Part shown: positions 3,118 to 61,088 of the stretch, in pieces | How positions within the stretch are numbered: the stretch's first letter is position 1 | How the letters are laid out: each line of letters opens with the position of its first letter | Assembly (NCBI GenBank): GCA_964372395.1 | Contig: CAYJQV010000005.1 | Location: forward strand, 126-64,125 | Direction: 5' to 3' | From: an uncultured Planctomycetia bacterium | GTDB taxonomy: Bacteria > Omnitrophota > Gorgyraeia > 1-14-0-20-64-10 | DNA: 64,000 bases | Program-made: the position numbers and the translations under genes | The notes under the pieces: model-generated | What the model was told of the DNA's origin: nothing | Seen by the model: the letters and a program-made list of their open reading frames with translations, nothing else | The model's database searches: none

Positions 3118-3498
3118 ATGGCCGGTCCCCTGATCCTCGTCGTGGATGATGAGAAGGACATCGTCGAGATCATCTGCGATCTGCTCGCCGGGGAGGGCTT
3201 TCGCAGCCGCGCCGCTTACGACGGCCGGCAGGCGCTGGAGGAAGTCTCCCGCCAGCGGCCGGATGCGGTCATCCTGGACATCAAGATGCCGGTGCTGGAC
3301 GGGCTGGAGGTGATCCGCCGGATCCGGGCCGAGCCTTCGACGGCCCCCCTTCCGATCGTGGTGCTCACCGCCACCCAGGTCATCCAGGAGCTGCAGGACC
3401 GATTCCGGGAGCTGCGCGTGGCGACCTGGATCTCGAAGCCGTTTGAGCCGGAGGCGCTCGTGGCGGCGGTCAGACGCGCCTTGAAGAGGGCTCCGTGA
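3118..3498 (+). CDS. Single-domain response regulator (CheY-like receiver)
   Basis: 126 aa; LILVVDDEKD... DAVILDIKMP... receiver-domain signature with phospho-acceptor Asp context. Confidence 0.8.
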   Translation: MAGPLILVVDDEKDIVEIICDLLAGEGFRSRAAYDGRQALEEVSRQRPDAVILDIKMPVLDGLEVIRRIRAEPSTAPLPIVVLTATQVIQELQDRFRELRVATWISKPFEPEALVAAVRRALKRAP

Positions 3499-8100: not shown

Positions 8101-9146
8101 ATCTTTCCCCGGCTGACCAGCTCATTCAAGCGGGGAGCCCGCTGATCCCGGGAGATCACCTTGCCGGTCACCACACCCTGGTTGGCCAGCGTGAGCTGCC
8201 CGGCTGCCTCGTCCAGACCCCTCTGTGCACGGGCCAGCTCTTCAGCATCTCCAACTCGGGCAGCCGCCTCAGCCCGCTCCTTTGCCTGCAAGAAGGCCTG
8301 TCGTGCATTCTGCTGCGCAAGGGCGAGCTCCTGCTCCCCATCCTCGACCCCGATGTCCCGCAGACGGCCGGTGGGCTCCGAGAGAACCTGCGAGGGATTG
8401 GGCGGCCGGATCCGAATCCGCCCCGCCGGATCCAGGCGATACCACTGGTTGTTCCAAAAGAGCTCCACCGTGAAGGAATGATCGCCAACGTACTCCGGCT
8501 TGGCCTCCAGGCGCCCCTCGAACCGGACCCAGCCGTCCGGCCAGACATTGCGCACCTTCATGCCGATCGTCTTTTCCTTCACCACAATCCTTCCTCCGTC
8601 TCCTGAAAAGATCGAAAGCTGGATCTGCACCCGTTTCGGGATGTACGGGGCGAGCTCCTGCTTGATCCTCCCGCGCAAGACGGGGCTGACCCCTTCGCCG
8701 GGCCTCACTCCCTTGAAATAGAGGTCGCCGGAGTCCAGGCTCCCGTCGCCCGGCAGTTGCCTCACCAAGTCCTGAAGAGCAGGCGGAAGCTGCGAGACCC
8801 GGATGGAGGCGAAGAAACGCTGATACTGAGGCGGCCCGCCCCGCGTCCCCATGATGGTCATGCGGGGGAGCCGCTCCCCGCCGAACGGAACCACGTCTCC
8901 CCCGTCCTTCCAGACGAGCTGTGCCGGCGGCGTATCCGGATCCTCCGGCTCCGGGAAGGTCATCTCCTCCATGCCGGAGCGGAGGAGGTTCTGCCCCTCG
9001 GTGTCCTGGATGCGGCGCAGGGTGGCTGGCTCGTCCGAAAGGGCCCAAGCCGGGATGGGATCTCCCAGAAGGAGGGAGAGGATGAGAGGGCCGCTGAGAG
9101 CCGGTTTCAGGAACCGGCCTGGCTTTTCTATCGGCTTCTGAAGCAT
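5166..9146 (-). CDS. Large secreted multidomain protein of unknown function with C-terminal degenerate PfkB/ribokinase-like domain
   Basis: About 1,329 aa from an internal Met (MLQKPIEKPGRFLKPALSGPLILSLLLGDPIPAWALS = signal-peptide-like). The C-terminal third has PfkB-family landmarks, HPGGFAPNLVQA (cf. GGKGANQA) and TYTSGATHAAIAAFRLG (cf. DTTGAGDAFxGAF), with the catalytic Asp replaced. The remainder has no recognisable motifs. Confidence 0.5.
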   Translation of the reverse strand: MLQKPIEKPGRFLKPALSGPLILSLLLGDPIPAWALSDEPATLRRIQDTEGQNLLRSGMEEMTFPEPEDPDTPPAQLVWKDGGDVVPFGGERLPRMTIMGTRGGPPQYQRFFASIRVSQLPPALQDLVRQLPGDGSLDSGDLYFKGVRPGEGVSPVLRGRIKQELAPYIPKRVQIQLSIFSGDGGRIVVKEKTIGMKVRNVWPDGWVRFEGRLEAKPEYVGDHSFTVELFWNNQWYRLDPAGRIRIRPPNPSQVLSEPTGRLRDIGVEDGEQELALAQQNARQAFLQAKERAEAAARVGDAEELARAQRGLDEAAGQLTLANQGVVTGKVISRDQRAPRLNELVSRGKISPAEAVQAFVAQQQAVDVQKRDFFTGTEYRVGVLPDGPVDIMFNPNRANTPKPPAPEPGQQAPHPLDDAHPIRFVVGDRIETLRQRTLPGFAKDLDNPVDYRLSPYGYTWRHFTMPVAQQVDQARWAEPIRAAVREMWLQRGIGTVVGGNIALKAAASLPEWAHLHGIPWRMPMDNPGDDEIEWFFLLRGIRVGILKNPGMTTFVLEGQGTRAEQDAMIARASQILDWLKEPGVALTEYNVWGVVGEDGLGRLFITPRNLAEPVPPAGDQRWRPSDDYAKPLADRDYWVAELSPGQFRLMGWEEMERFGLVNQTDPAREHRARYDRSRPLVRQGRPVLDVKMGLMEIRRILLISRREIFEDRFLEARLIKAYERIGLPWDHPGIAQVLARLRAQPGDRPLNADADEEVRSALRTLNEIREPRQLGQLIELFERIGRWSHRTVEAFGRLGESRDQLTQQAFRLVRMYAERFPHLVRLEKEIPPPPERAAEREERLPTLVGLSLNGTLDLVVSVKTRADGTKQLAVRLHPGGFAPNLVQATHALGAPAELVAVVGGETGEAIVETLRGKGVTIEPILRKDGQSSRVSLMVASDSGAERRLVGVGTPLPPEAIREAAQEVRRVMEEEAARAEKEGRPVPHLALGERLVDEPSNHAQVEEARWAKGRGFPTIVEANASWDSSTRTRFQEVGPDLFITAQETLANFLGTSGRALRYRPEEAAAQAETLRRTHGIREWLIPVRAGGLVLVNDRARVQVLPSPVLRLTYTSGATHAAIAAFRLGNLLGYPPAEAARLGTAADTLSRERREEERGRDPSRKELLGNLFRTQVNVLPVPVAAGMEEEESRRAPGPILLFPGAVGVSRSLTDRGIPVAQMLWEDQGDRFDALGLGVPTVRLGARPSAVAEEQWMLGEVVPAAAGELGTATVGRTRFDFSVGGGLNEIIFAPESLGQLLMALAGMEEASLPAVFEEIAADTDTLGGNL

Positions 9147-9260
9147 GGAGTTAGGGTGGACAAAAAAACGCCGCTCGGCGCTTGCCGGAAGTATGCCACA
9201 GGATCGCCACAGCGGCAAGGTGAAGTTGAGCTAAGTTTATTTGATTAACGCGGCCTCTGC

Positions 9261-9674
9261 CTAATCCAGCAGATCCAAGAAGCGGGCGGGATCGGCCATC
9301 TCAACGGAGCGGAATCTTCCGATGCCCAGGAGTGCCGCATCCCCCGTGATCAGATAGCGGACACCGGCGGTCACGGCGCAGGCGAGGAATTTGACGTCAT
9401 CCCGTTCAACCCCGGCGGGCGGACCGGCTCGCAGAGGAACGTCCTCAACCACCTCGGCGTAAGGCAGGACGATCTCCTCAATGACCTGCCTCACCTCGCG
9501 AGGGGAGAGCTGCAGCTTCGGATAGCTCAGGACGTGCAGGTATTCCCGGACGATTCCCCGCGAGACGACCGGGCGCATCCGATCCGCCATCCACGCCTCC
9601 ACGACCCGGCGTGTGGTCGTGCCCCGCCGGATTGCAGCCACCAGGACGTTGGTGTCAACGACGGCACGGATCAA
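9261..9674 (-). CDS. vapC: PIN-domain toxin (VapC family)
   Basis: 137 aa; MIRAVVDTNVLVAAI...; the PIN acidic-residue pattern; a 4-nt overlap with the upstream antitoxin gene. Confidence 0.7.
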   Translation of the reverse strand: MIRAVVDTNVLVAAIRRGTTTRRVVEAWMADRMRPVVSRGIVREYLHVLSYPKLQLSPREVRQVIEEIVLPYAEVVEDVPLRAGPPAGVERDDVKFLACAVTAGVRYLITGDAALLGIGRFRSVEMADPARFLDLLD

Positions 9675-9922
9675 CGTTTCCGTGCCCAGCGGACCGCCTC
9701 TTCAATCTCCTCCTCGGCGATTCCCAACCGCTCCCATTTCCGGCTGATTGCGTCCAGCACCGCCAGGCCCTTGTCCCGCGGGCTGACTTGAACCGGAGAG
9801 AGCACGATCCTTCGACCCGTCACCTCGCATTGAAGGAGGTCCCCCTGGCGGATCTTCAGCGTCGTCACCGCCTCCCTGGGCAAGGTAATCTGGTACTTGC
9901 TCAACACCTTCCGTAGCATCAT
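9671..9922 (-). CDS. AbrB/MazE/SpoVT-family antitoxin (VapB-like)
   Basis: About 83 aa from the internal MM start (MMLRKVLSKYQITLPREAVTTLKIRQGDLLQCEV... swapped-hairpin AbrB-like fold); stop overlaps the vapC start. Confidence 0.6.
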   Translation of the reverse strand: MMLRKVLSKYQITLPREAVTTLKIRQGDLLQCEVTGRRIVLSPVQVSPRDKGLAVLDAISRKWERLGIAEEEIEEAVRWARKR

Positions 9923-9956
9923 GGCCTCATCCCCCTCAACTCCCAGTATATCTGAA

Positions 9957-9981
9957 AGTAGGAAAGTAGTCAATACCTACT
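9957..9981. promoter_or_regulatory. Inverted repeat AGTAGG-N13-CCTACT upstream of the VapBC-2 operon (candidate operator)
   Basis: AGTAGGaaagtagtcaataCCTACT lies 35-60 nt upstream of the antitoxin start in a relatively AT-rich spacer. Confidence 0.35.
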
Positions 9982-13000: not shown

Positions 13001-14663
13001 GCCTCTCCCGCAGCGGGTCGATCGCGGGATTGGTGACCTGCGCGAAGAGCTGCTTGAAGTAGGCGGCCAGGATCCGCGGACGGGTGGAGAGGATGGCCAG
13101 CGGCGCGTCATCCCCCATGGAGCCCACCGGCTCCTTGCCGGTCTCGGCCATCGCCTTGACGATGAACTGCAGATCCTCCTGGGTGAGGCCGACGGCCCTC
13201 AGGCGCCTCAGAAGCTCCGCCTCGGCGCCGGGCGCGGCTGCGGCATCCGGCGCCGTCACCGGGGGCTTGCCCTCGTTGAGCTTCAGGAGATCCGGCCGGA
13301 GCATGTTGGAATGAACCCAGGCGGCGTACGGCTTTCGCTCGGCCAGCTCCTGTTTGATCTGGTCGTTCCGCAGCACCCGCTTGCGCGCGGTGTCCACCGC
13401 CAGCATCTGGCCGGGCCCCAGCCGGCCCGACTCGATCACCTGCGCCTCGTCGATATCCACGATCCCGACCTCCGATCCGAGGACCACGAGCCCGTCCCGC
13501 GTGATCTTGTACCGCGCCGGCCGCAGGCCGTTCCGGTCGAGGGCCGCCGCCGCGATCACCCCGTCGGTGATGGCCAGCGCCGCCGGGCCGTCCCACGGCT
13601 CCGACAGGCACGCCTGGAATTCAAAGAAGGCCTTCGTCTTCTGGTCCATGCCCGGCATGTTCTGCCACGCCTCGGGAACCAGGATTGTCATCGCATGGAG
13701 CAGCCCATAGCCGGACGAGACCAGCAGCTCCAGCGCGTTGTCCAGCATGGCCGAGTCGGATCCGCCCGCCTGGATCACAGGAACCAGGTCCTGGATCCGG
13801 CCTCCCCAAACCGGGGACTTGAGCTCCGGCTCGCGCGCCCGCATCCAGTTCCGGTTGCCCAGGAGGGTGTTGATCTCCCCGTTGTGGCCCAGGTACCTGA
13901 ACGGCTGGGCCAGGATCCAGTTGGGGAAGGTGTTCGTGGAATAGCGCTGATGGAAAAGCGCGATCGCCGTCTCGAAGGCCGGGTCGGTGAGATCCTCGTA
14001 GAAGTGGTTGAGCTGCGGGGCGACGAGGAGCCCCTTGTAGACGATCGTCCGCGAGGAGAAGGAGGGGATGTAGCACTCCTCCAGGCGCGCCTGGGCAAAG
14101 GCCTTCTCGATGAGCCGCCGCGTGTAGTAGAGGTGCCGCTCGTAATCAAAACCGTAACCGGGGTCTGACCCCGCGGGGTCAGACCCCCTCAGGTTTTCGC
14201 CTTTTCGATTTGGCTTCCCGACCAGCAGGTGCTGGATCGTCGGCATGGTGGCCAGCGCCCGCTCTCCGAGCGCGTCCGGGTTGACCGGCACCTCGCGCCA
14301 GCCGTACAGGGTCAGGCCCTGTTCGCGCATGATCCGCTCGGCGATCCCCTTCGCGGAGAGCCGGGCACTCGGGCTCTGCGGGAAGAAGAAGACGCCGACG
14401 GCCAGATCCTGGACGTTGGCCTTGCCGTTGCCGCAGCCCAGCCGGGCCAGCTCGCGGGCAAACAGCTTCCGGGGGATCTGCGTCAACACCCCCGCCCCGT
14501 CGCCGGACTTGCCGTCTGCCGAGACCGCACCCCGGTGGGTGACACAGCAGACCCCCTGGATCGCCATCCGCAGGATCCGGTGGCTGGGCTTGCCCGAGAC
14601 ATCGGCCACAAAGCCGACCCCGCAGGAGTCCCGTTCGAATTCAGGTTGCCAAAGTGTCTTCAT
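10056..14663 (-). CDS. gltB: Glutamate synthase large subunit
   Basis: 1,535 aa; N-terminal amidotransferase CGVGFVA..., the FMN/Fe-S central domain and the C-terminal GXGXG beta-helix domain are all recognisable; contains an in-frame GSDPAGSDP insertion from a palindromic repeat (14160..14187). Confidence 0.95.
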   Translation of the reverse strand: MKTLWQPEFERDSCGVGFVADVSGKPSHRILRMAIQGVCCVTHRGAVSADGKSGDGAGVLTQIPRKLFARELARLGCGNGKANVQDLAVGVFFFPQSPSARLSAKGIAERIMREQGLTLYGWREVPVNPDALGERALATMPTIQHLLVGKPNRKGENLRGSDPAGSDPGYGFDYERHLYYTRRLIEKAFAQARLEECYIPSFSSRTIVYKGLLVAPQLNHFYEDLTDPAFETAIALFHQRYSTNTFPNWILAQPFRYLGHNGEINTLLGNRNWMRAREPELKSPVWGGRIQDLVPVIQAGGSDSAMLDNALELLVSSGYGLLHAMTILVPEAWQNMPGMDQKTKAFFEFQACLSEPWDGPAALAITDGVIAAAALDRNGLRPARYKITRDGLVVLGSEVGIVDIDEAQVIESGRLGPGQMLAVDTARKRVLRNDQIKQELAERKPYAAWVHSNMLRPDLLKLNEGKPPVTAPDAAAAPGAEAELLRRLRAVGLTQEDLQFIVKAMAETGKEPVGSMGDDAPLAILSTRPRILAAYFKQLFAQVTNPAIDPLRERLVMSLNTALGARGSILEESPEHARWIKFGSPALSEPELAWIEGLRDPAFRSIRIPILFPVSDGPAGLEKALGRLCETAAAAVDAGHTILILTDRGMSAEQAAMPLQMAVGAVHHNLIRRGKRMRASLVCETAQAWDIHHYALAIGYGAAAIHPYGALQAIAWAHAKGTIKGVTLEQSYANYEKSVEDGILKIMSKMGISCVSSYRGAQIFEAIGLGNEVIEACFTGTVSRIGGIGFDLLARDVLALHASGYGPQAAGTGAEPAAAALEPGGFYRFRRDGESHAFNPVVLDALHTAVHSGEWADYEKYAAAVNGREPICLRDLLDFKSDRGPVPLDQVEPVESIRRRFCTAGMSHGALSRETHECLAIALNRIGGKSNSGEGGEDPVRFKPLPNGDSANSAIKQVASGRFGVTPAYLSSARELEIKIAQGSKPGEGGQLPGHKVSEEIARIRHSIPGVTLISPPPHHDIYSIEDLAQLIYDLKASNAQAEVCVKLVAEAGVGTIAAGVAKGYADVVHIAGHDGGTGASPLSSIKNAGAPWEMGVAETQQVLVMNDLRGRIAVRTDGGMKTGRDLVVAALLGAESFNFGTAALVAAGCCMVRQCHLNTCPVGVATQDPKLRAKFKSPPDFVVNFFTFVATEVRRILAQLGYRSLDEVIGRVDLLAVRPKAKENPKWATIDWSPLLADPDPSRQRPRRRIVSRNDREGDTPLDEEILAEARPALEGRARVTLRYPVKNHQRSIGTRLSHGIALRYGDQGLPAGASIEVQLSGSAGQSFGAFLISGIRLLLTGDANDYVGKGMHGGEIGIRPNPKIPAHSEELVLAGNTVLYGATGGTLCVAGRAGERFCVRNSGARAVVEGLGDHGCEYMTGGLVVVLGPTGRNFGAGMTGGEAFVLDPEELFPKQLNPALVELHRVEDPEDQNLLKSMILRHRELTGSRRAEELLSDWGNALPLFWKVSPKKEVVQLEAAAGAPQAKAGLPAR
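14160..14187. repeat. Family-1 palindromic element pair GGGGTCTGACCCC-GC-GGGGTCAGACCCC (perfect 28-bp palindrome) inside gltB
   Basis: Read directly; translated in frame as ...RGSDPAGSDPG... within GltB. Confidence 0.85.
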
Positions 14664-15560: not shown

Positions 15561-16560
15561 CCACCTCGTCCACCGTCACCGCCTGCAGGCAAACGAAGCC
15601 GATCGGGCACCGGTGCGCCAGACACGGCCGGCAGCCCACATCCTGATGAAGCACCAAGCTCCGCGGCCCCGTCGGGCCCCAGCGCGTGGGGCTCAATCCC
15701 CCGCCCCACCGGCCGAAGATCGCCACCACCGGTGTGCCCACGGCACAAGCCAGATGAACCGGCCCGCTGTCGTTGGAGATGAGGCACCGGGCCCGGCGCA
15801 GGAGGCAGGCCAGCTCGCCCAAGCCAAATATCCCCAGCGCCGGTGTGACCTGCGCCCACATGCGGCTGACCACCTCCCGGCCGGCGGAAGGATCGTCCGG
15901 GCCGGTCACCACGACCACGCGGGCTCCGTGCCGGGTTGAGAGCAAGTCCCCCACCTCTGCGAAACGCTCCGCCGGCCAGCGCTTGGAAGGGCAGCTCGCG
16001 CCCGGGTGCAGGACAATCAAGGGAAGCTCTCCGACGACCCCGTGCCCTCGGAGGAAGGCGTCGACCTTCGCCTCCTGCTCCGGCCGGATCGGGACAAGGA
16101 GATCCCGCCGTGTGCCCTCCGCGCCGATCAACCGCAGGAGATCGAGATTATACTCCAGCTCGTGGCGGTTGCCCTCCCTTTTCACGTAGGGCAGCCGATG
16201 GGTGAGCAGCCAGGGCAGCCGGCGCGCGTACCCCACCCTTCGCCGGATCCCCGCCAGCCACGTGACAAGGATCACCCGGTTGGTGGAGTGGAGGATGACG
16301 GCCGTGTCGAACCGATCCGCCCTCAGGGCGGAGGCGAATCTCCAGCTCCCCATCCAGCTCTTCTCGCTCCCCTCCTTATCGTACAGGAGGACGGCGTCGA
16401 GATCCGGATGGCCCTCCACCAGCTCACGGTTCTCGGGACGGACCATCATCCCCAGGTAGGCATCCGGGAACGCCTCCCGCAGCGAGCGGATGACCGGGGT
16501 GGAGAGGACGACATCCCCGATCCGGTCGGTGCGGACGATAAGGACGCGAGGAGCGGTCAT
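15520..16560 (-). CDS. Glycosyltransferase family 9 (ADP-heptose:LPS heptosyltransferase-like)
   Basis: About 346 aa from the internal Met (MTAPRVLIVRTDRIGDVVLSTPVIRSL...); C-terminal ...ISNDSGPVHLACAVGTPVVAIFG GT9 signature; the 131-aa Arg/Pro-rich upstream extension in the ORF track is rejected. Confidence 0.7.
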   Translation of the reverse strand: MTAPRVLIVRTDRIGDVVLSTPVIRSLREAFPDAYLGMMVRPENRELVEGHPDLDAVLLYDKEGSEKSWMGSWRFASALRADRFDTAVILHSTNRVILVTWLAGIRRRVGYARRLPWLLTHRLPYVKREGNRHELEYNLDLLRLIGAEGTRRDLLVPIRPEQEAKVDAFLRGHGVVGELPLIVLHPGASCPSKRWPAERFAEVGDLLSTRHGARVVVVTGPDDPSAGREVVSRMWAQVTPALGIFGLGELACLLRRARCLISNDSGPVHLACAVGTPVVAIFGRWGGGLSPTRWGPTGPRSLVLHQDVGCRPCLAHRCPIGFVCLQAVTVDEVVAAAECAGGLCAS

Positions 16561-16780
16561 GCCATCCCTAGCGGCGAGCCCCGCGTCGGGGATGCCCGGC
16601 GGTGCGGCGTCGGAAGGCCGAGCGGGCATGGATCCCGAGGACCTTGGTCCGAGGGAGAGCGAGGCCGGACGCCGCAGTGAGGCCCGGCACGCTGGGCCGG
16701 GCCGAACGGCGCGAGCCGGGCGACCCGGCGGGGGGCTCGCCGCCAGCGAGGTTACTTCGCACCGCTCGCAGGGACATCGG

Positions 16781-17719
16781 CTAGCTCTCCAGGATCTTCG
16801 CGGCAGCCTGGTACACCTCCTCGGCCGGCAGCCACCGCATGCACTCGTGGCCGTACGGGCAGAGGGCCCGCTCGCAGGGTGCGCAGACCAGGGGCAAACG
16901 GACCACGCGTGAGCGGGGGCCGCGCGGCCCGTACTTCCTCTCGTCCGTCGGGCCAAAGATCGCCACCGTCGGGACCCCCATGAGATCCGCCGCGTGCAGG
17001 CCGGCGCTGTCGTTCGTGATGACCAGCGCCGTCCGCGCCAGAAGCGCCGCCAGCTGCCGCAGCGAGGTCTGCCCGACGAGATCGGTGGCCCGCCCGCGCA
17101 TCGCTGAAGCGACCTCCTGCGCGATCGGCCGCTCCGATTCCTCGCCGACGAGGAGGATCTGCGCGGAGATCTCGCGGATGAGCCGGTCCGCCACCTCGGC
17201 GAAGCGCGGAGCGGGCCAGCGCTTCAGGTGGCTGCGCGCACCGGGAACCATCACCACGGGACGGAGCCCGGCCGAGAGCTGCGCCTGAACCCACGCCTCC
17301 TCCTCGGGCCCGAAGGGCAGACGAACGGCATCCCCGCCCGCGCCGATCCCCAGCGACCGGACCAGCGCCAGGTGACTCTCTGTACGGTGCATGCCGGATC
17401 GGTCCTGCCCGCGCCAGAGCGGCGTCCGGCGCCCGGCCGGAATGAGAAAGGGGATCAGGGAATGCCTGAAGTCCACCACCCAGTCGAATCGGACGCGCGC
17501 CAGACGGAAGATCAAAGCGGCCTGGCGGATCAAAGAGGCCCGCTTCTCCCAGATCCAGACCCGGTGCACGCGCGGGTCCGCCTCGAACAGCTCCCGGGTC
17601 CTGGGGGAAGCCAGCAGATGAAACTCGGCGGAGGGCCGCGCCCGCCACAGTGCCCCGATGGCCGGGTAGGTCAGGAGGGCATCGCCCAGATTGCTCAGAC
17701 TGATGATCAGAAACCTCAT
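16781..17719 (-). CDS. Glycosyltransferase family 9 (heptosyltransferase)
   Basis: 312 aa; MRFLIISLSNLGDALLTYPAIGAL..., ...ITNDSAGLHAADLMGVPTVAIFGPTD; ATG overlaps the stop of the upstream GT9 gene (ATGA). Confidence 0.75.
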   Translation of the reverse strand: MRFLIISLSNLGDALLTYPAIGALWRARPSAEFHLLASPRTRELFEADPRVHRVWIWEKRASLIRQAALIFRLARVRFDWVVDFRHSLIPFLIPAGRRTPLWRGQDRSGMHRTESHLALVRSLGIGAGGDAVRLPFGPEEEAWVQAQLSAGLRPVVMVPGARSHLKRWPAPRFAEVADRLIREISAQILLVGEESERPIAQEVASAMRGRATDLVGQTSLRQLAALLARTALVITNDSAGLHAADLMGVPTVAIFGPTDERKYGPRGPRSRVVRLPLVCAPCERALCPYGHECMRWLPAEEVYQAAAKILES

Positions 17720-18834
17720 GGGGTCTGACCCTCCGGGGTCTGACCCTCCGGGGTCTGACCCTCCGGGGTCTGACCCTCTGGGGTCTGACCCTCTGGGGTC
17801 TGACCCCGGTTCAAAAGCCGTGCGGCCTGCTCCAACACCTCCTCCACCGCGATCTGATGCATGCAGAGGTTCACCGGGCAGTGCAGGCGGTAGCAGGGAA
17901 CCGGACAGCCGATGGAGCCGAAGAGGACCGCCGTGCCCTGCCCAGCCGGTGGTCCGGTCAGCTCCGGCTTCGTGGGCCCGAACAGCCCGATGACCGGGAT
18001 GCCGACGGCTGCACCCAGGTGCAGCGGCCCGGAATCGTTGGAGAGGAGCAGCCGCGCGTGCGCGAGAAGCGCCCCCAGCTCGCGAAAGCTCGTCCGGCCG
18101 GCGGCCGCGAGCGCCGGCCCGCGCATCCTGCCCCGGATCTCCTCAACCAGAGCCCGATCCCCTTCCCCTCCGACAAAGAGCACGCGCGCGCGGAATCGGT
18201 CCCTCAAGTCATCCGCCAGGCGGGCGAAGTTTCCCGCCGGCCACCGCTTGAGCCGCCAGTTGGCGCCGGCGTGCAGGGCGACCAGCGGCTCCCCTTCTTC
18301 CACCCCGAGCTCCCGCAGGAGGCGCTCCGCCGCGTCCCGGTCCTCCCGGCGGATCCCGATCTCGTACTGCATGCCGTCACGCCGGATTCCGTCCGCCTCC
18401 ACCATCCGCAGAAACCATTCCGCCTTGTGGATCGAATCGGGCGCAGGAGGATCGGCCGCCGTGGTGAGCAGCCATCCCCGCTTCCACGTCCGGTAGCCGA
18501 CCCGGTGCGGAATACCGGCGGCCCGGACCCAGAGCGCCCGGGTGAGGGAACGGTGGAAGAGATACGCGGCATCGAACCGCTCCTCCCGCAGCCGGCGGAT
18601 GATCCTCCCCCAGCGGAAAAGGTTCGGCAGGCCCCGGACCTCCTCCAGCAGGATCACCTCATCCAGGTTCGGATTGCCCTCCAGGAGATCCAGCCCCCGC
18701 GGGGGAACCAGGCAGGCGATGAAGCTGTCCGGGTGCGCCCGGCGGATCGCCCGGATCGCCGGGGTCATGAAGAGGAGGTCCCCCAGCCAGTTCACTGCCA
18801 CGATCAGGATCCGTTTACGAGAGGGCGCCGGCAT
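17716..18834 (-). CDS. Glycosyltransferase family 9 (heptosyltransferase II-like) with C-terminal (GQTPE)n repeat tail
   Basis: 372 aa; ILIVAVNWLGDLLFMTPAIRAI..., ...LSNDSGPLHLGAAVGIPVIGLFGPT; the last 30 aa are GQTPE x6 encoded by the 15-bp tandem repeat at 17720..17807. Confidence 0.75.
   Translation of the reverse strand: MPAPSRKRILIVAVNWLGDLLFMTPAIRAIRRAHPDSFIACLVPPRGLDLLEGNPNLDEVILLEEVRGLPNLFRWGRIIRRLREERFDAAYLFHRSLTRALWVRAAGIPHRVGYRTWKRGWLLTTAADPPAPDSIHKAEWFLRMVEADGIRRDGMQYEIGIRREDRDAAERLLRELGVEEGEPLVALHAGANWRLKRWPAGNFARLADDLRDRFRARVLFVGGEGDRALVEEIRGRMRGPALAAAGRTSFRELGALLAHARLLLSNDSGPLHLGAAVGIPVIGLFGPTKPELTGPPAGQGTAVLFGSIGCPVPCYRLHCPVNLCMHQIAVEEVLEQAARLLNRGQTPEGQTPEGQTPEGQTPEGQTPEGQTP
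17720..17807. repeat. Tandem array, about 6 copies of the 15-bp unit GGGGTCTGACCCTCC (family-1 repeat core)
   Basis: Direct repeats 17720-17734, 17735-17749, 17750-17764, 17765-17779, 17780-17794, 17795-17807; they encode the C-terminal tail of the GT9 gene and abut the start of the next GT9 gene. Confidence 0.9.
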
Positions 18835-19907
18835 AGACCTCTTCCACCTCCTGAACCACCCGCCTCAGGTCAAATCGCTCCTGCGCCTCACGGCGAGCCG
18901 CCTCGGCCATCCTCTTTCTCGTGCCCTCATCCCGCAGGAGAGACCGGATCGCCTGCTCCAGGGCCTGCGCGTCCTGCGGAGGAATCAGGAGCCCGCTCCT
19001 GCCGGACTCGATCATCTTGGCAGGCCCTCCCGCCCAGGAGGAGATCACCGGAACCCCCGCCACCATCGCCTCCGCCAGGGAAAGCCCGAATCCCTCCCGA
19101 TCGGATGGCGAGACGAAGAGCTGCATCACTGCGAGGGGGATCCGCGCATCCTCCACCGGCGGCGAGAGGATGACCCGGTCGGCGATTCCCAGCTCATACG
19201 CCAGCCGGACGAGCTCTTCACGGCTCGGGCCATCCCCGACGAGCAGAACCTGCAGGCGGGGGAACTCGCCGAGCAGACCGCGCGCGGCCCTGAGGACAAG
19301 ATCCAGCCCTTTCACCGGGCTGAGGCGGGCGACGGCGCCCACGACCGGCTCCCCCCAAAGACCGTGGCATTCCCGGAACCGGCGGGCCTCTTCGGGCGGA
19401 GGCGGCACCAGGAAGTGCTCGACGTCCACGCCGTTCCAGATCAGCTTCACCTGATGGGGCGGAACCAACCGGTACTCCTTGACCAGGCGATCCCTCGAGG
19501 GCTCGGAGATCGCCATCACCGTCTTGCCCCAGCACCGGAGCAGCCGGCGCCCGATCCGCCGGCGGTAGAGCCCGTGGCACGTTGAAACGTAGGGGACGCC
19601 GGTCAGCGCACCGGCCATCCCGCAGAGAATCTGGGTGACGCGGGTGTGGGCGTGGAGGATCTCCGGCCTCTCCGCGCGGATGATCCGCAGCAGGCGAGGC
19701 AGGGCACTCAGCCAGATCTTCGGGTTGAACTCACTCGAAGTCCGGCACCGGATCCGGTGATGGGAAATCCCTTCGCGCGCGAGGCGCCGCTCCAGCCAGC
19801 CGCCGCCGGAGACGACGATCGGCTGATGGCCGCGCCGCTTCAGCCCCCGCGCCAGGCCGGTCACGTAGACCGGGATGCCGCCCATCTCGAGGTGGGTGGT
19901 GGCCATC
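18815..19907 (-). CDS. Glycosyltransferase family 4 (GT-B, RfaG/WaaG-like)
   Basis: About 364 aa from the internal ATG (MATTHLEMGGIPVYVTGLARGLKRRGH...; a possible GTG 4 codons upstream); C-terminal EGFGLSLAEAMVAGVPVISS GT4 motif; the 132-aa upstream extension is rejected. Confidence 0.7.
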
Positions 19908-20081: not shown

Positions 20082-22220
20082 TCACAGGAAGCTCCGCACC
20101 GCTTCCAGCACGTCGTCCACCCCGATCCGGCGCATGCACTCCATGCGGCCCTCCCCGCCGCGGTAGCAGCTCCGCCGATAGCAGGGGCTGCAGGGAAGAT
20201 CCACGCGGAACAGCTTGAGCTGCGGGCTGGGCGGCAGGTGCCGCACCGGATCGGTGGGCCCGAAGAGGGCAACAAGCGGAGTCCCCGCGGCCGCCGCCAC
20301 ATGAAGCGGCGCGGAGTCTCCTCCGATGAAGACGCGGCAGCGGCCGAGCAGCACGGCCAGCTCGTTCAGGGAAGTGGCCCCCACCGCCATCACCGGCTTG
20401 GCCTGCGCCGCGCGGTGAATCTCCTCGCAGAGGGCCCGCTCCCCCTCCGAGCCCACGAGAACAACGCGCGCCTTGGCCTGATGAGCCAGGCGATCGATGA
20501 GCTCAACGTAGCGTTCGGCCGGCCAGCGTTTGGAGGCCCACCGCGCACCCGGATGCACGCCGATGAGCGGCTGATTCTGGGCGACCCACGATTCCCCCAG
20601 CAGCTCCCGCACCCGCTCCTCATCCACCGGCCCGGGCCACAGCTCCAGGTGCTGGGCGGCCGCCTGGATCCCCAGCCACTGGAGGAGCCGCAGCTGCTGT
20701 TCCACCGGCGGGGTCGGCCCCTCCGGCGGAGGCACCTTGTGGGTCAGGAGCCAGCTCCAGCGCCGGCCCGCGAAGCCGTAGCGCTGCGGGGCGCCGCTCA
20801 AGCATCCCAGCCAGTGGCTGACCCGATTGTTCTGAAAATCGACCACGAGATCCACCTGGAGGTCCCGCAGGCGGGCCCCCAACCGCAGCAGCCCGGATAA
20901 CGAACCGTCGCGAAGGGAATCGTAGACGATCAGGTCATCCAGGTAGGGACAGCGGTGGAGCAGCTCCCGCTGGTCCCTGCCCACAACGACCGAGAGAAAC
21001 GCCTTCGGAAACCGCTCCCGCAGGGCGCGCAGCGATGGGGTGGCCAGGACCACATCGCCGGCGGCGCTGAGCTTCATGACGAGGAGCCGGAGCCGCTCGG
21101 CGCTCTGACGGTACACCTCCAGCGTATCGCTCACCATCCTCGAAAGCGGGTAAACCGTCTCGACCCGCCGGCGGTTCTCATGGGCCAGCTCCGCAGCAAG
21201 CTTCCGGTCCCTGAGCAGGGTCGACATCGCCGTCGCCAAGGCGACCGGATCTCCGGGGGGAACCAAAAGCCCGGTCCTGCGATCCAGGATCACCTCGGGG
21301 ACTCCCCCGACCCGGGTCGCCGCCACCGGAACGCCGGCCGACCCGGCCTCGATCAGGACCCGGCCGAACGCCTCCTGCCCCGTGGAAGACAGGACGATCA
21401 GGTCGGTCTCCTGAAGGAGCCGCGGGACATCCGACTCGTGGCCGGTGAACTCCACCCTGTCCTGCAGGTCCAGGTGAGAAACGAGCGACTTGAGCTGCGC
21501 CAGATACCTGGCATGCCGGGGGTCCGCATCCCCGACGATCTTCAGGCGGGCGCGCGGGAAGCTCCTGGAAAGGATCCCGAAGGCCCGGAGGAGCTCCCGA
21601 TGACCCTTGAACGGCGTCACCCTCCCGATGGCGGCGATCCTCCATTCCCCCTTCGGCGCCTCCAGCCGGAGCTCCCTCCACGGAAAGCGGCCCAGATCCA
21701 CCCCGCGGGGGATCACGCGGATCCGCTCCGGCGGGACATGGAAAAGATCGATCATGTGCCGGGCGATCCGCTCGGAGTTGGCGATCACCATCCGGCCCCA
21801 GCCCATCACCCGGCTGAAGGGATGATTCGCATAGTAGCCGTGCGCGGTGGTCACAAAGCAGGGGATCCGCTGGCGCGACCCCACCCGGAAGCCGGCCCGC
21901 GCCGCGACCCGGCGCCAGGCCAGATACCCGATGAGGGCCGGAACGCGGCTGCGGGCATGCACGACATCCACGCCGTGCGATTCCAGGATCTCGGCCACCC
22001 GCGGAACCAGGCGCAGCGCCGTCCAGGGATTCTTCCGGTGGATCGGCAGCGCATAGTGGATGGCACCTGCCGCCTCCAGCTCCCGGACCAGCGGGCCGCC
22101 GGAAGAGATCACGATCGCCCGGTGCCCGCCGGCGGCGAGGGACCGGGCCAGATCCACCGTGCCGGTTTCCACCCCGCCGCCCTTGAGCGAGGGGACCATC
22201 TGCAGAACGGTCAGGACCAT
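20082..22220 (-). CDS. Bifunctional glycosyltransferase: N-terminal GT4 fused to C-terminal GT9 heptosyltransferase
   Basis: 712 aa; residues about 1-370 are GT4-like (MVPSLKGGGVETGTVDLARSLAAGGH..., EAFGRVLIEAGSAGVPVAATRVGG); residues about 375-712 are GT9-like (LLVMKLSAAGDVVLATPSLRAL..., FIGGDSAPLHVAAAAGTPLVALFGPTD). Confidence 0.7.
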   Translation of the reverse strand: MVLTVLQMVPSLKGGGVETGTVDLARSLAAGGHRAIVISSGGPLVRELEAAGAIHYALPIHRKNPWTALRLVPRVAEILESHGVDVVHARSRVPALIGYLAWRRVAARAGFRVGSRQRIPCFVTTAHGYYANHPFSRVMGWGRMVIANSERIARHMIDLFHVPPERIRVIPRGVDLGRFPWRELRLEAPKGEWRIAAIGRVTPFKGHRELLRAFGILSRSFPRARLKIVGDADPRHARYLAQLKSLVSHLDLQDRVEFTGHESDVPRLLQETDLIVLSSTGQEAFGRVLIEAGSAGVPVAATRVGGVPEVILDRRTGLLVPPGDPVALATAMSTLLRDRKLAAELAHENRRRVETVYPLSRMVSDTLEVYRQSAERLRLLVMKLSAAGDVVLATPSLRALRERFPKAFLSVVVGRDQRELLHRCPYLDDLIVYDSLRDGSLSGLLRLGARLRDLQVDLVVDFQNNRVSHWLGCLSGAPQRYGFAGRRWSWLLTHKVPPPEGPTPPVEQQLRLLQWLGIQAAAQHLELWPGPVDEERVRELLGESWVAQNQPLIGVHPGARWASKRWPAERYVELIDRLAHQAKARVVLVGSEGERALCEEIHRAAQAKPVMAVGATSLNELAVLLGRCRVFIGGDSAPLHVAAAAGTPLVALFGPTDPVRHLPPSPQLKLFRVDLPCSPCYRRSCYRGGEGRMECMRRIGVDDVLEAVRSFL

Positions 22221-30338: not shown

Positions 30339-31265
30339 TCATCGCGCCCGGCTGAATCCGCGGCCGGCCACCTGCCGGACCGCCCCCTTGAGCTCCAGGC
30401 CGGTCAGCACCGCCAGGAGCTGGGTCGGCGGCAGGGTGGTCGTGCGGGCGATCTCCTCCAGATTCGCGGCGGACCCCACCGGCACCGCCTCAAACACCCG
30501 CCTCTCCTCCTTGGAAAAGGTGGGGTCAGACCCCGTAGGGTCAGACCCCGTAGGGTCAGACCCCACCGGGTTGCGGCGTACCTGGTACCGGAGTTGAGGG
30601 GCGAGCTCTTCCAGAACATCCGCGACGCTCTCCACGAGGCGGGCTCCGTCTCTGATCAGGGCGTGCGTGCCCCTGCTTCTTTCCGAGGAGACCGGGCCGG
30701 GCACCGCGAACACCTCGCGGCCCTGCTCCAGGGCGTGGCGGGCCGTGATCAGCGCCCCGCTCTTCAAGGGGGCCTCCACCACGATGACGCCCAGGCTGAT
30801 GCCGGCGATCACCCGGTTGCGCTGGGGGAAATGCCAGGGCCGCGGCTCTGCCTCCATGGGAAACTCGGAGAGGAGACAGCCGTTTCCCGCGATCCGCTGC
30901 GCGAGCTTGCGGTGCTGGGGCGGGTAAAGATGGGCGAGCCCATGACCGACCACCGCAACGGTCCGGCCCCCGGCCTCCAGCGCCCCCTCGTGGCCGGCTG
31001 CGTCAATCCCCTCCGCCAGGCCGGAGACCACCGTGATCCCGCACCCGGCCAGATCCATCGCCAGCCGCCGGGCGGTCTCCAGGCCGTACGGGCTGGCTGA
31101 GCGGGTTCCCACGATGGCCACGGCGGCCGCATCCTCCGGAAGCAGCGTCCCCTTGACGTACAGGATCGCCGGGGGATCATGGATCTTCCGCAGCAGATCC
31201 GGGTAATCCGGATCCTTCAGGGTCAGCTCCCTCACCTCCGCAGAGAAGGCCTTCGGCCTATCCAT
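30339..31265 (-). CDS. dprA: DNA processing protein A (Smf)
   Basis: About 308 aa from the internal Met; Rossmann-like AIVGTRSASPYGLETARRLAMDLAGCGITVVSGLAEGIDAAGH and a C-terminal winged-helix region; contains an in-frame (GSDPT)3 insertion from the repeat at 30532..30574. Confidence 0.85.
   Translation of the reverse strand: MDRPKAFSAEVRELTLKDPDYPDLLRKIHDPPAILYVKGTLLPEDAAAVAIVGTRSASPYGLETARRLAMDLAGCGITVVSGLAEGIDAAGHEGALEAGGRTVAVVGHGLAHLYPPQHRKLAQRIAGNGCLLSEFPMEAEPRPWHFPQRNRVIAGISLGVIVVEAPLKSGALITARHALEQGREVFAVPGPVSSERSRGTHALIRDGARLVESVADVLEELAPQLRYQVRRNPVGSDPTGSDPTGSDPTFSKEERRVFEAVPVGSAANLEEIARTTTLPPTQLLAVLTGLELKGAVRQVAGRGFSRAR
30532..30574. repeat. Family-1 repeat: GGGGTCAGACCCC followed by two GTAGGGTCAGACCCC units, inside dprA
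   Basis: Direct repeats read from the sequence; flanked by an 11-bp direct repeat GACCCCACCGG (30482-30492 and 30569-30579). Confidence 0.85.
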
Positions 31266-34662: not shown

Positions 34663-34706
34663 TGTCCCAAAGTGGAGCGTCCCCAATTCACAAAGTGGAG
34701 CGTCCC
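34663..34706. repeat. Tandem direct repeat, 2 x 22 bp (AAAGTGGAGCGTCCCCAATTCA)
   Basis: Two perfect adjacent copies in the leuA-aroE intergenic spacer; an inverted partner GGACGCTCCA lies at 34601-34610. Confidence 0.8.
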
Positions 34707-34710
34707 CAAT

Positions 34711-39794: not shown

Positions 39795-39821
39795 GGGGTC
39801 TGACCCCGCCGGGGTCAGACC
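39795..39821. repeat. Family-1 palindromic element pair GGGGTCTGACCCCG-C-CGGGGTCAGACC at the ilvD stop codon
   Basis: The ilvD TGA stop (39815-39817 rc) lies inside the right arm of the element. Confidence 0.8.
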
Positions 39822-41479
39822 TCAAGCACCGCTCCCTCGCTGGCCGAGCCAACGAGTCTCGCGTAGCGCGCCATGACGCCGGTCTTGTATTTCGGCGCGG
39901 GCGCCTTCCACTTCTTCAGGCGGATCTTGAGCTCCGCCGCAGTGAGATCCACATTCAACCGGCGCTTCTTCACGTCCACGGTGATGAGGTCCCCATTCTT
40001 CACCGCGGCGATCGGGCCGCCCACCGCGGCCTCCGGCGCCACATGCCCTGCCATCAGCCCGTGCGTCGCCCCGGAGAACCGCCCGTCGGTCAGCAGGGCC
40101 ACGGAGCTGCCCAGGCCCTCCCCCACCATCGCGCCGGTGACCGCGAGCATCTCCCGCATGCCGGGGCCTCCCTTCGGCCCCTCGTAGCGGATCACCACCA
40201 CGTCCCCCTTCCTGATCCTGCGGGCCTTGACCGCGGCGAAGGCATCCTCTTCACAGTCGAACACCCGCGCCGGGCCCCGGAAGAGCAGCTTCTGTTCTCC
40301 CGCCACCTTCAGCACGCATCCCTCAGGAGCCAGGTTCCCCCGCAGGATCGCCAGCCCCCCGCTCTTCTTCAAAGGGCTCGCCAGCGGGCAGACCACCTTC
40401 TGGCCTGAGGTCTCCCTGGCCAGGGCCGCCTCCTCGCCGATCGTGCGGCCGGTGACGGTGAGAGCCTTCTTCCTCAAGAGCCCCGCATCCAGCAAGCGCT
40501 TGGCCACCAGGCGGATCCCGCCCGCTCGGTGCATGTCCGGCGCGGTGAAACGCCCCCACGGCTTCATGTCCGCCCAGATCGGAGTGCGTCGGCTCACCCT
40601 GTCAAAATCACCGATCGAAAGCGTCACCCCCGCTTCCCTCGCCAGCGCCAGAAGGTGCAGCACCCCGTTCGTCGATCCGCCGGTGGCAACAATGCTAGCG
40701 ATCGCATTCTCAAAGGCCCCCCGGGTCAGGATCCGGCGCGGGGTCGGTCCCTTCCGGACCAGCTCCATCGCCAGCCGGCCCGCCTCGTAGGCGGCCCGGT
40801 CCTTCTCCGGGTCCATCGCCGGGATGGAGTTTGTCCCCATCGGAGAAATCCCCGAGAGCTCCATCGCTGTGGCCATGGTGTTGGCGGTAAACTGCCCGCC
40901 GCAGGCCCCCGGCCCCGGACAGGCGCTCTTCTCCAGCTCCAGAAGCTGCTTCTGGCTCATCCGTCCCGCCGCGCAGGCCCCCACCCCCTCGAACACGTCC
41001 TGGATCGTTACATCCCGTCCCTCGAACCGGCCCGGGGCGATCGAGCCGCCGTAGATCATCAGCCCCGGCAGATTCACCCGGGCCAGCGCCATCACGGTCC
41101 CCGGAATCGTCTTGTCGCAGCCGGAGATCGCCACCAGTCCGTCGAACAGGTGCCCTCGCGCCACGAGCTCAATCGAGTCGGCCACCACCTCGCGGCTCAC
41201 CAGCGAGCACTTCATCCCCTCCGTGCCCATCGAGATCCCGTCCGAGACTGAAACGGTGTTGAACTCGATCGGCACCCCGCCCGCGTCGCGGACCCCCCGC
41301 TTCACCTGCTCCGAGAGCCGCCGCAGATGGAAATTGCACGGCATCACCTCGGTCCAGGTGTTGGCCACCCCGATCAGCGGCTTGTCGAAGTCCGCATCGG
41401 ACAACCCAACCGCCCGAAGCATGGCCCGCGCGGGGGCGCGGCTCAGCCCCTTCTTCAGCGCGTCGCTGCGGAGCTTCAT
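39815..41479 (-). CDS. ilvD: Dihydroxy-acid dehydratase
   Basis: 554 aa; CDKTIPG (Fe-S cysteine), [11 protein letters not shown] and the [10 protein letters not shown] signatures of IlvD/EDD. Confidence 0.95.
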
Positions 41480-45025: not shown

Positions 45026-45151
45026 CCTATCGTCGGGCTCCGGACAATCCATGGAGGAAAAGCCGATGGTGCGCATCGGGTCCCGTATTAAAAGTTACTC
45101 GACAGCGGGCAGACTTTCAAGGAGAAATATCTTCCTATTTATTTCTGCTAA

Positions 45152-59645: not shown

Positions 59646-61088
59646 TCATCTCCGAGGGCGGATGACGGTCCCGCCCGATGTATCCTCCAGGATGAATCCC
59701 TGCTCCTGGATCTCCCTGCGGTACCGGTCCGCCTCCTCGAATCGCCTCTCGCGGCGGGCGAGGTCTCTCTTCCCCGCCAGCTCCTGGATCTCCGCGGGAA
59801 TCTCCGCGCGCCCGAGGCGCAGGCCGAGGATCCCCGCGAGCTCCCGCAAGGCCCTGGCCGCTCCGACGAGCCGGCCCTTCGCGGAGGCATCCGCAAACCA
59901 CCCGCGGGCCTGCTGCGCCAGCATGAACAGGGCGCTCAGCGCCTCAGAGGTGTTCAGATCGTCCTCCAGAGCCGCCGTGAATCGAGCGCGGGATTCCCGG
60001 ATTTCGCCGCTCTCTTCCTCCTGCACCTTTCCGACCCTCTGCTCCACCTGCACCAGAAAATCATCCAGCGTCTCCAGCGCCCGGGCCGACTCTCCGAGGC
60101 GATCCCGGGTGAAGTCCATCGGGGAACGGTAATGAGCCCCAAGGAAGAAGAGCCGGAGGACATCGGCAGGGTGCCTCTCCAGCGCCTGCGGGATGGTGAT
60201 CACGTTGCCGGCCGACTTGGCCATCTTCTGGCCCGCCACCGTGAGCAGGCCATTGTGGAGCCAGACGCGCGCGAACGGCTTGCCGGCCCCGACCGCCTGC
60301 GCCAGCTCATTCTCATGATGCGGGAAGAGGAGGTCCATCCCGCCGCCGTGGATGTCAAAGGCATCTCCGAGGAGGGACGTGGCCATGGTGGAGCATTCGA
60401 TGTGCCAGCCGGGACGCCCGGCCCCCCAGGGGCTGGTCCACTGCGGCTCCTCCGGCTTGGCGTTCTTCCAGAGCGCGAAATCCAGCGGATCCCTCTTCCC
60501 CTCCCCCGTCTCCCCCCGCGCTCCCTCCAGCATCTCGTCCAGCTTCCGGTGAGAGAGGGGGCCGTACGGGTGGACCGCGCTGAACGCCCGCACGGAGAAG
60601 TAGACCCCGTCGCTTCCCCGGTACGCCATTCCCCGCCGGACGAGCTCCCCGATGAAGGCGATCATCTGCGGGATGAACTCCGTGGCCCTCGGCTCCTCCT
60701 GCGGGGGCTGGAGCCCCAGCCGGGTGAAGTCCGCCTGGAAACGCTCCGTGAAATGCTCCGCGACGGCCCGAGTCCGCCCCTTCAAATCCAAAGGGGTCTG
60801 ACCCCTTTGGGCGGCATCTCTCAGCTCGCCTGAGTCAGGGGTCAGACCCCTGGCCCGTTCGATGATCTTGTCGTCCAGATCGGTGATGTTGCGGACGTAG
60901 GTGACCTGATGGCCGGACGCCTCCAGGAAGCGCCGGAGGACATCGAACACCACCGCGCCCCGCGCGTGCCCGATGTGGCAGTCGTCGTAGACGGTCACCC
61001 CGCAGACGTAGATCGTCACCCGCGGGGGATGGAGCGGCTGGAACAGCTCCTTCTTTCCGGAGAGGGTGTTGAACAAGCGGAGGGACAT
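59646..61088 (-). CDS. cysS: Cysteinyl-tRNA synthetase
   Basis: 480 aa; HIGH (CHIGHARG), zinc-binding Cys, KMSKS (KMAKS); contains an in-frame insertion of about 29 aa (RGLTPDSGELRDAAQRGQTPLDLKGRTRA) from the repeat element at 60791..60854. Confidence 0.95.
   Translation of the reverse strand: MSLRLFNTLSGKKELFQPLHPPRVTIYVCGVTVYDDCHIGHARGAVVFDVLRRFLEASGHQVTYVRNITDLDDKIIERARGLTPDSGELRDAAQRGQTPLDLKGRTRAVAEHFTERFQADFTRLGLQPPQEEPRATEFIPQMIAFIGELVRRGMAYRGSDGVYFSVRAFSAVHPYGPLSHRKLDEMLEGARGETGEGKRDPLDFALWKNAKPEEPQWTSPWGAGRPGWHIECSTMATSLLGDAFDIHGGGMDLLFPHHENELAQAVGAGKPFARVWLHNGLLTVAGQKMAKSAGNVITIPQALERHPADVLRLFFLGAHYRSPMDFTRDRLGESARALETLDDFLVQVEQRVGKVQEEESGEIRESRARFTAALEDDLNTSEALSALFMLAQQARGWFADASAKGRLVGAARALRELAGILGLRLGRAEIPAEIQELAGKRDLARRERRFEEADRYRREIQEQGFILEDTSGGTVIRPRR
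60791..60854. repeat. Family-1 composite element inside cysS: AAAGGGGTCTGACCCCTTT ... CTCAG-ctcgc-CTGAG ... CAGGGGTCAGACCCCTG
   Basis: Two oppositely oriented GGGGTC(T/A)GACCCC cores (60794-60806, 60839-60851) flanking a small internal hairpin. Confidence 0.85.

Follow-up and report, generated by a model that had tools for sequence, protein, structure and literature searches.

The stretch of DNA considered here, called the window, comprises 64,000 nucleotides of contig CAYJQV010000005.1 (assembly GCA_964372395.1) from an uncultured bacterium of the Omnitrophota. It carries a cluster of lipopolysaccharide (LPS) genes, and at the junction between two of them, both coding for glycosyltransferases of the GT9 family, there is a tandem array of a short palindrome. 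The upstream gene of this junction (17716..18834, minus strand) encodes a WaaF-like GT9 heptosyltransferase of 372 amino acids (aa). This protein matches PF01075 with 132.6 bits (Pfam) and TIGR02195 (heptosyltransferase II) with 153 bits, the curated cut-off of the latter being 134.6. The TIGR02195 match is full-length, since it covers residues 8-341 of 372 and profile positions 1-338 of 339. The named homologues of this protein belong to Candidatus Omnitrophota. The downstream GT9 gene (16781..17719, minus strand; 312 aa, PF01075) begins with the ATG at 17719-17717, which overlaps the TGA of the upstream gene (17718-17716) in an ATGA stop/start element (17716..17719, minus strand) located directly 3' of the last repeat copy.

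The array occupies positions 17720..17806 of the minus strand and is composed of six direct REP-type cores (the term is introduced below) with a period of 15 bp, as determined by Tandem Repeats Finder (TRF; period 15, 5.8 copies, 98% matches, score 160) and by reading both strands. It is, by a wide margin, the top-scoring tandem repeat of the whole window. On the plus strand, three GGGGTCTGACCCTCC units are followed by two GGGGTCTGACCCTCT units and one GGGGTCTGACCCC; the coding strand consists of GGGTCAGACCCC units separated by the spacers AGA, AGA, GGA, GGA, and GGA, and then ATGA. The AGA and GGA spacers are grouped in contiguous blocks and the difference between them is synonymous (CCA vs. 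CCG), a pattern that fits stepwise tandem duplication. The C-terminus of the upstream protein is ...AARLLNR(GQTPE)5GQTP, residues 344-372 constituting a repeat-encoded tail of 29 residues. A previous sequence-only reading of this DNA rightly described six copies, a repeat tail on the GT9 protein, and the ATGA overlap. However, it placed the end of the array at 17807 instead of 17806, counted the tail as (GQTPE)6, that is, 30 residues, and left a gap of 1 nt before the ATG, which the array actually abuts.

An identical 372-aa protein with six copies is encoded on two contigs, one of which is CAMTXW010000030.1 of assembly GCA_947085785.1, and both assemblies show the same copy number. A search of metagenome contigs with the locus-specific anchor GGCTTTTGAACCGGGGTCAGACCCC yielded 0 matches and hence no further alleles. 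Assembly from short reads is able to collapse or expand tandem repeats, and the length of the array could in principle come from a mis-assembled repetitive stretch. However, the array is just 87 bp long and has unique flanks, the two contigs that carry the identical product are of unequal length, and similar arrays of 4-5 copies are present in 18 independent metagenome contigs, so that an artefact of this kind is extremely improbable. The latter contigs (GC content 0.55-0.73) were found by searching for at least four units with a pattern that enforced the 15-bp period, and they are uninformative on other periods.

The repeat is not confined to this locus but belongs to a genome-wide family of palindromes of the repetitive extragenic palindromic (REP) type, linked in relatives to REP-associated tyrosine transposases (RAYTs). 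The palindrome, GGGGTCWGACCCC, is 13 bp long and its centre is the 11-nt core GGGTCWGACCC. The window contains 14 exact copies of this core at six loci, for 0.16 expected, and none of 100 shuffled sequences reached 14. As is typical of REPs and of the REP doublets forming hairpins (REPINs), the core is over-represented, no other 11-mer or 13-mer of the window being repeated as often; taking together the window and one related metagenome-assembled genome (MAG), there are 45 cores in 144 kb.

The other copies of the window lie in or at the ends of genes with very different functions. The gene of the glutamate synthase GltB carries a canonical inverted REP doublet, GGGGTCTGACCCC-GC-GGGGTCAGACCCC (14160..14187, minus strand), read in frame as ..RGSDPAGSDPG... 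The GltB of a 90%-identical relative (L004) shows an unrelated sequence exactly at the spot of the doublet, the rest of the protein being near-identical. This loop (window 14130-14200; about 6720-6800 in L004) holds in the relative a different insert, ..IPTPVPGANLGTNLSPVPGA.., which may be a member of another repeat family, and it seems to be an insertion hot spot. Three direct cores with a 15-bp period and the spacer GTA (30523..30564, minus strand) encode three GSDPT units in DprA, where they lie in the linker between the DprA domain and the winged helix (Pfam residues 20-222 and 254-311, respectively). At the 3' end of ilvD (IlvD by Pfam) there is an inverted pair with 16-bp spacing whose second copy has one mismatch (39795..39822, minus strand), the stop codon TGA falling inside this second copy. 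Two inverted cores 45 bp apart (60793..60850, minus strand) are read in frame in the cysteinyl-tRNA synthetase (CysRS), ..RGLTPDSGELRDAAQRGQTPL.., and the loop that they encode is about 20 residues longer than in the solved CysRS 3tqo. Inverted pairs account for three of the six loci; the GT9 and DprA arrays are direct and are not, therefore, canonical REPINs.

In contrast to the extragenic position of classical REPs, four of the six loci of the window are translated within open reading frames (ORFs) and one spans a stop codon. A stop codon appears in only one of the six frames of the core, the other five being open and giving GSDP, GLT(P), GVRP, GSDP, and GQT(P). These small loop-forming Gly-x-x-Pro peptides help to explain the tolerance of in-frame copies. 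The idea that the 15-bp period is a product of frame selection holds only in part, since the canonical non-coding doublet already measures 13+2 = 15 bp; the only clearly non-coding pair of the window is spaced by 16 bp. With regard to the GQTPE unit itself, the leucyl-tRNA synthetase (LeuRS) gene of a related Omnitrophota MAG (L105, 7625-7650) contains GQTPEGQTPSGSDP with the GGGTCAGACCCCGGA unit of the array, indicating that this unit arose or spread at other loci too.

Comparison with related organisms, the test that the sequence-only reading had put forward for its own proposal of a variable array, does reveal differences in copy number at the inter-GT9 junction: six cores in the window, one in L001, two in L137 and L138, and none in L004. 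Judging from these alleles, the number of copies changes over evolutionary time. The L001 protein is 82% identical to that of the window and its junction, AACCGGGGTCAGACCCCATGA, is identical but with a single copy, the window being equal to L001 plus exactly five 15-bp units; the repeat-encoded tail of L001 has only 4 residues. This one-copy junction also bears out the earlier statement that a 15-bp unit preserves the frame. At the junction of L004 and its duplicates (90% identity) there is no core, and the overlap is kept as GTGA; their tail was considered as a decayed copy of the core, but the similarity is too weak for such a claim. In L137 and L138 an inverted doublet lies between the two GT9 genes, and in L138 the stop codon is inside the second core, with the ATG 3 nt further on. 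The N-terminus of the downstream GT9, MRFLIISLSNLGDALL, corresponds to the same predicted start in L001 (ATGA), L004 (GTGA), and L137/L138. The 90%-identical relative (L002/L004) also has genes for a PhdYeFM-like antitoxin and a DUF6036 protein inserted between GT9 genes. These genes are absent from the cluster of the window, which marks the GT9 cluster as a site of small accessory-gene turnover.

The AlphaFold2 model of the host GT9 (mean pLDDT 88.4, pTM 0.85) shows a confident GT-B-like fold, in which the last helix comprises residues 330-343; the fold ends near residue 343 and residues 346-372 have pLDDT values below 50. The 29-residue tail is predicted to be disordered and lies outside the family profile. 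Of 120 homologues, about 115 lack it, and most stop right after the last helix, at ...FL. The peptide could still have been selected, (GQTPE)n serving the enzyme as a proline-rich spacer or ruler for its positioning or oligomerisation, in the manner of the heptads of Helicobacter pylori fucosyltransferases. The repeat is indeed translated, its sole internal difference is synonymous (CCA vs. CCG), and GQTPEGQTP is also present in the LeuRS of the related MAG. However, the peptide follows mechanically from the palindrome, the same core yielding GSDP, GLTP, and GVRP in other genes or frames, and the tail is missing in the 90%-identical relative, reduced to 4 residues in the 82%-identical one, and predicted to be disordered, all of which makes a selected tail very improbable.

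A link with transposases comes from two more distant relatives, L135 and L136 (52% identical), in which the synteny of the window is kept: a GT4-GT9 fusion, a GT4, a GT9, and then a further GT9. Between both GT9 genes lies a gene of 194 aa, which is encoded on the opposite strand and has inverted core doublets, three in all, in its flanks (2553-2578, 2608-2633, and 3302-3327). The L135 protein matches PF01797 (Y1_Tnp) with 47.5 bits (cut-off 23) and, along the full length of the profile, NF047646 (REP-associated tyrosine transposase) with 67.8 bits and an E-value of 9e-19, and contains an H-Y-H motif. It has hundreds of homologues, some of them named RayT by the Joint Genome Institute (JGI). 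The flanking DNA was inspected for four of these homologues. Those of L142 (61% identity) and L141 (51%) carry the same core in their flanks. The homologue of L139 (57%; GCA_002787095.1 PCVW01000004.1, 840-1000 and 1625-1700) is flanked by the variant GGGGCCWGGCCCC, and that of L140 (55%; 900-1000) by the variant GGTGTCWGACACC. In these two variants the core has changed symmetrically, both arms together, which on sequence grounds looks like co-evolution of transposase and hairpin; both keep the C-W-G centre and only GGTGTCWGACACC retains GTCWGAC.

A high-GC metagenome contig (L133) contains a RAYT-like ORF (428-1246; 34.5% identity) whose flanks carry direct 15-bp arrays of four and five cores in opposite orientation (301-356 and 1192-1262), indicating that direct arrays can adjoin a transposase gene. 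A gammaproteobacterial MAG (L088) shows a partly masked ORF among cores, related to the L135 RAYT-like protein according to BLASTP (E-value 1e-6); Pfam gave no match with the spliced, N-masked ORF, so that this homology rests on BLASTP.

The core is also widely distributed beyond the relatives of the window. When genomes, one per species, were scanned for pairs of cores at a distance of 15 bp, at least 110 loci were detected. The matches listed include Omnitrophota (14 loci in a single MAG); Actinomycetota of the Gaiellaceae, Solirubrobacterales, and Acidimicrobiales; isolates of the Oxalobacteraceae (Duganella, Massilia, Rugamonas, and Janthinobacterium); many Marinobacter species, Oceanospirillaceae, Cellvibrionaceae, and Parapusillimonas; and Planctomycetia, Patescibacteria, Gemmatimonas, and Scopulibacillus. 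As befits REPINs, most of the 110 or more loci consist of a T/A pair in inverted orientation that is able to form a hairpin, in many cases with complementary flanks. The canonical element, found in a related Omnitrophota MAG, is CCTAACG-GGGTCTGACCCC-GC-GGGGTCAGACCC-CGTTAGG, and canonical doublets are present in many other genomes as well. The outer flank has the consensus N-A-(C/T)-G, that is, CGTTA, CGTCA, or CGTAG outward, the CGTC/GTAG tags being present in only some copies. Dense clusters of cores, up to 16 in 8 kb, occur in the isolates L091 (Marinobacter sp. ATCH36), L077, and L041/L103 (Parapusillimonas sp. JC17), where predicted ORFs start with MGSDP.. or contain GSDP; the core family is thus accessible in culturable hosts. 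A full-text literature search for the core sequence returned only unrelated primers and viral sequences, and no prior description was found. Two resemblances, namely to the inverted-repeat tips of the Tn3 family (which begin with GGGGTCTGAC) and to the DNA-uptake sequences of Neisseria (which have GTCTGA in common), were dropped as unsupported once the association with RAYTs appeared.

At the RNA level, the array is predicted to fold with -73.7 kcal/mol (z = -5.7), the copies pairing with each other, and the z-score of a one-copy version is 0.28. The cost of opening the region from -15 to +12 around the downstream AUG was predicted for a series of 0 to 10 copies. It amounts to 11.6 kcal/mol with no copies and 12.7 with one, and beyond one copy it alternates between about 16.0 (even numbers) and 13.4-14.7 kcal/mol (odd numbers), the predicted effect of the array being of only a few kcal/mol. 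The downstream start is thus predicted to be buried whatever the allele, in keeping with translational coupling and with the conservation of the 4-nt overlap. A GGAGG motif lies 10 nt 5' of the downstream ATG, within the last repeat spacer. An intrinsic terminator was considered for the array and rejected, as a promoter and terminator scan of 16500-19000 revealed no promoter-like or terminator-like site there. Nor does the array correspond to any RNA family described so far, a scan of the whole window against Rfam at gathering thresholds giving zero matches.

These features might suggest that the array is kept as an RNA element of the operon, a hairpin similar to REPs or to bacterial interspersed mosaic elements (BIMEs) that would protect the upstream mRNA from 3'-exonucleases or tune the ratio of both enzymes, ribosomes being slowed close to the stop codon and translational coupling being enforced. 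REPs of Escherichia coli located near stop codons have been reported to influence both translation and mRNA stability. The strong predicted structure, the exactly intercistronic position, the recurrence of REP copies at this junction in several relatives, and the GGAGG in the repeat spacer would all agree with such a role. However, most homologous operons have no repeat at the junction, the closest relative (90%) is free of it and yet retains a GTGA overlap, and neither terminator-like or promoter-like sites at the array nor Rfam matches in the window were found, so that we regard a maintained RNA element as unlikely.

The sequence-only reading had proposed instead a contingency locus, in which frequent slippage within the population would change tail length and coupling to the next gene and lead to heritable heterogeneity of the LPS core. 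Six near-identical 15-bp units are a plausible substrate for slippage, copy number does vary among related organisms, the predicted opening cost alternates with the parity of the copy number, and in-frame repeat variation has a precedent in the heptads of H. pylori LPS glycosyltransferases (PMC2806470). A shift of the coupling register is excluded, however, because the unit is a multiple of 3 and the ATGA overlap is constant at any copy number. Contingency loci switch by frameshift or by promoter spacing, whereas a 15-nt step turns neither gene on or off and can alter only the length of the tail and the local RNA structure. The change in opening cost is small and affects a start that is predicted to be already buried at 11.6 kcal/mol without any copies. 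Besides, no polymorphism within a population was seen, both assemblies that contain the protein showing six copies, and the same repeat is found in housekeeping proteins (GltB, CysRS, DprA, and the LeuRS of a relative), for which phase variation would make no sense. LPS heterogeneity caused by the array is possible, but the tail lies outside the conserved fold and the profile, is predicted to be disordered, and is dispensable in nearly all homologues, which renders any effect on LPS a conjecture and a contingency locus quite unlikely.

The array is thus read as ordinary repeat colonisation rather than as an LPS switch. The explanation that we favour, and consider likely, is a local tandem amplification of the REP-type palindrome GGGGTCWGACCCC of this genome at the junction of two co-directional heptosyltransferase genes, selfish or near-neutral and with at most a modest quantitative effect on the expression of both genes. 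A REP copy would have been seeded at the junction by RAYT-type mobilisation, or would be a remnant that persisted after loss of the RAYT gene. Replication slippage would then have added 15-bp units, and selection would have spared only those changes that are multiples of 3 and leave the ATGA overlap intact. The outcome would be a disordered 29-residue tail tolerated by the enzyme, and a transcribed array that folds on itself and leaves the downstream start buried and reliant on ribosomes arriving from the upstream ORF. The best-supported reading is thus that a REP copy was seeded at this intercistronic junction, where REPs recur within the clade, and then expanded by replication slippage in 15-bp steps. 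The reading as a slippage-expanded REP cluster comes from the RAYT-like gene and doublets at the orthologous junction and from the further RAYT homologues flanked by the core.

Several facts weigh against this explanation. The copies of the array are direct, whereas the presumed mobile unit is an inverted doublet. The palindrome, with its 13 bp, is below the 20-40 bp of classical REPs. About half of the loci are within ORFs, unlike classical extragenic REPs; in a rough ORF test of 21 Omnitrophota loci, 10 fell within long ORFs, 4 lay at the end of an ORF, and the remaining 7 were not in long ORFs. The 67.8 bits of the L135 protein are lower than the equivalog cut-off of NF047646 (80; NCBIfam), tblastn with this protein detected no RAYT gene in the 64-kb window, and slippage is inferred from the structure of the array. 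REP/REPIN-RAYT systems are defined by a transposase gene flanked by an abundant palindrome (PMC3116915, PMC5581495). In favour of the explanation, tandem REPIN clusters (PMC3116915) and in-frame intragenic REPs, tRNA synthetases included (PMC3733652), have been documented in other organisms.

With respect to known systems, what is described here is of the REP/REPIN-RAYT kind (Bertels & Rainey 2011, PMC3116915; Bertels et al. 2017, PMC5581495), which is already known. The shared traits are a short, GC-rich, over-represented palindrome, mostly in hairpin-capable inverted doublets; genes of Y1 transposases flanked by the same sequence, in this case in relatives; tandem clusters; and elements located between co-directional genes, near the 3' end of the upstream ORF. 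The differences are the 13-bp core, the presence in many phyla, when REPs are usually lineage-specific, the proportion of intra-ORF loci, about one half, the direct instead of inverted array, and the lack of a RAYT in this window. What is notable here is a single core across many phyla.

In-frame palindromes in coding genes, including those of tRNA synthetases, have also been reported as intragenic REPs tagged with GTAG/CGTC (Di Nocera et al. 2013, PMC3733652) and as Rickettsia palindromic elements (RPE). Many of them form dimers or clusters and lengthen the protein by 20-30 residues or more, and some are located at the ends of ORFs. However, the flank of the core described here is mostly CGTTA, CGTC/GTAG being present in a minority of copies, and the RPE are about 100-150 bp long and unrelated to it in sequence. 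According to PMC2806470 (and Nilsson et al. 2006, cited there), H. pylori futA/futB and beta-(1,3)galT contain in-frame 21-bp heptad repeats whose number has been experimentally linked to enzyme behaviour. As in the window, an LPS glycosyltransferase carries close to its C-terminus a tandem repeat, whose copy number varies among isolates, but the heptads are gene-specific and the array is a copy of a genome-wide selfish palindrome. The position of the array and its stop/start overlap also match a third kind of repeat, the mycobacterial MIRU-VNTR (mycobacterial interspersed repetitive unit-variable number tandem repeat), although the 15-bp unit and its palindromic nature do not. MIRU-VNTRs are tandem repeats between operon genes that are read in frame, with the stop and start codons of the adjacent genes overlapping, and vary in copy number among strains; their units are of 40-100 bp, non-palindromic, and not associated with RAYTs.

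The window has other repeats and genes that are apart from this family. TRF detected two perfect or near-perfect direct repeats unrelated to the REP core, one of 23 bp in two copies (CAAAGTGGAGCGTCCCCAATTCA; 34668-34713), at the junction between a shikimate dehydrogenase-like gene and leuA, and another of 19 bp in two copies (46209-46246). Three large ORFs have little or no Pfam signal (5166-9218, 41912-45076, and 3216-4337): in the 1350-aa product the sole signal is PfkB-like (residues 889-1171), and the 1054-aa and 373-aa products have no match at E <= 1e-5. The LPS cluster contains two unusual fusions, a 712-aa GT4-GT9 protein (20082-22220) and a 673-aa protein composed of a lipid A acyltransferase and an ELM1-like domain (PF06258; 22228-24249), both conserved in the relatives L002 and L003. 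A PIN/MazE-like toxin-antitoxin pair adjoins gltB (9261-9973).

The distribution of the core leads to a broader, tentative proposal, to which we give somewhat less than an even chance. In it, GGGGTCWGACCCC would serve as the hairpin recognised by a single widespread lineage of RAYTs, maintained in at least seven phyla or moving between them (Omnitrophota, Actinomycetota, Pseudomonadota, Planctomycetota, Patescibacteria, Gemmatimonadota, and Bacillota). Its arms would co-vary with the transposase, and it would routinely colonise loops, linkers, and termini of essential proteins and expand by 15 bp. If this were true, the core would generally supply genomes with small evolvable peptide cassettes and with intercistronic structures.

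The usual description of REPIN-RAYT systems is that they are lineage-specific and extragenic. Here, one 13-bp core with RAYT-like neighbours recurs in phyla that are far apart from each other, and its tolerance of coding sequence is unusual. This family of cores would be a good test case for the conservation or transfer of REP specificity, and for selfish palindromes that add residues to essential proteins. In Omnitrophota and in other high-GC MAGs, G-x-x-P tails or inserts of proteins (GSDP, GQTP, GLTP, and GVRP) are REP footprints, and those who annotate such genomes or look for phase variation should treat G-x-x-P repeats as traces of REPs and not as gene-specific adaptive repeats.

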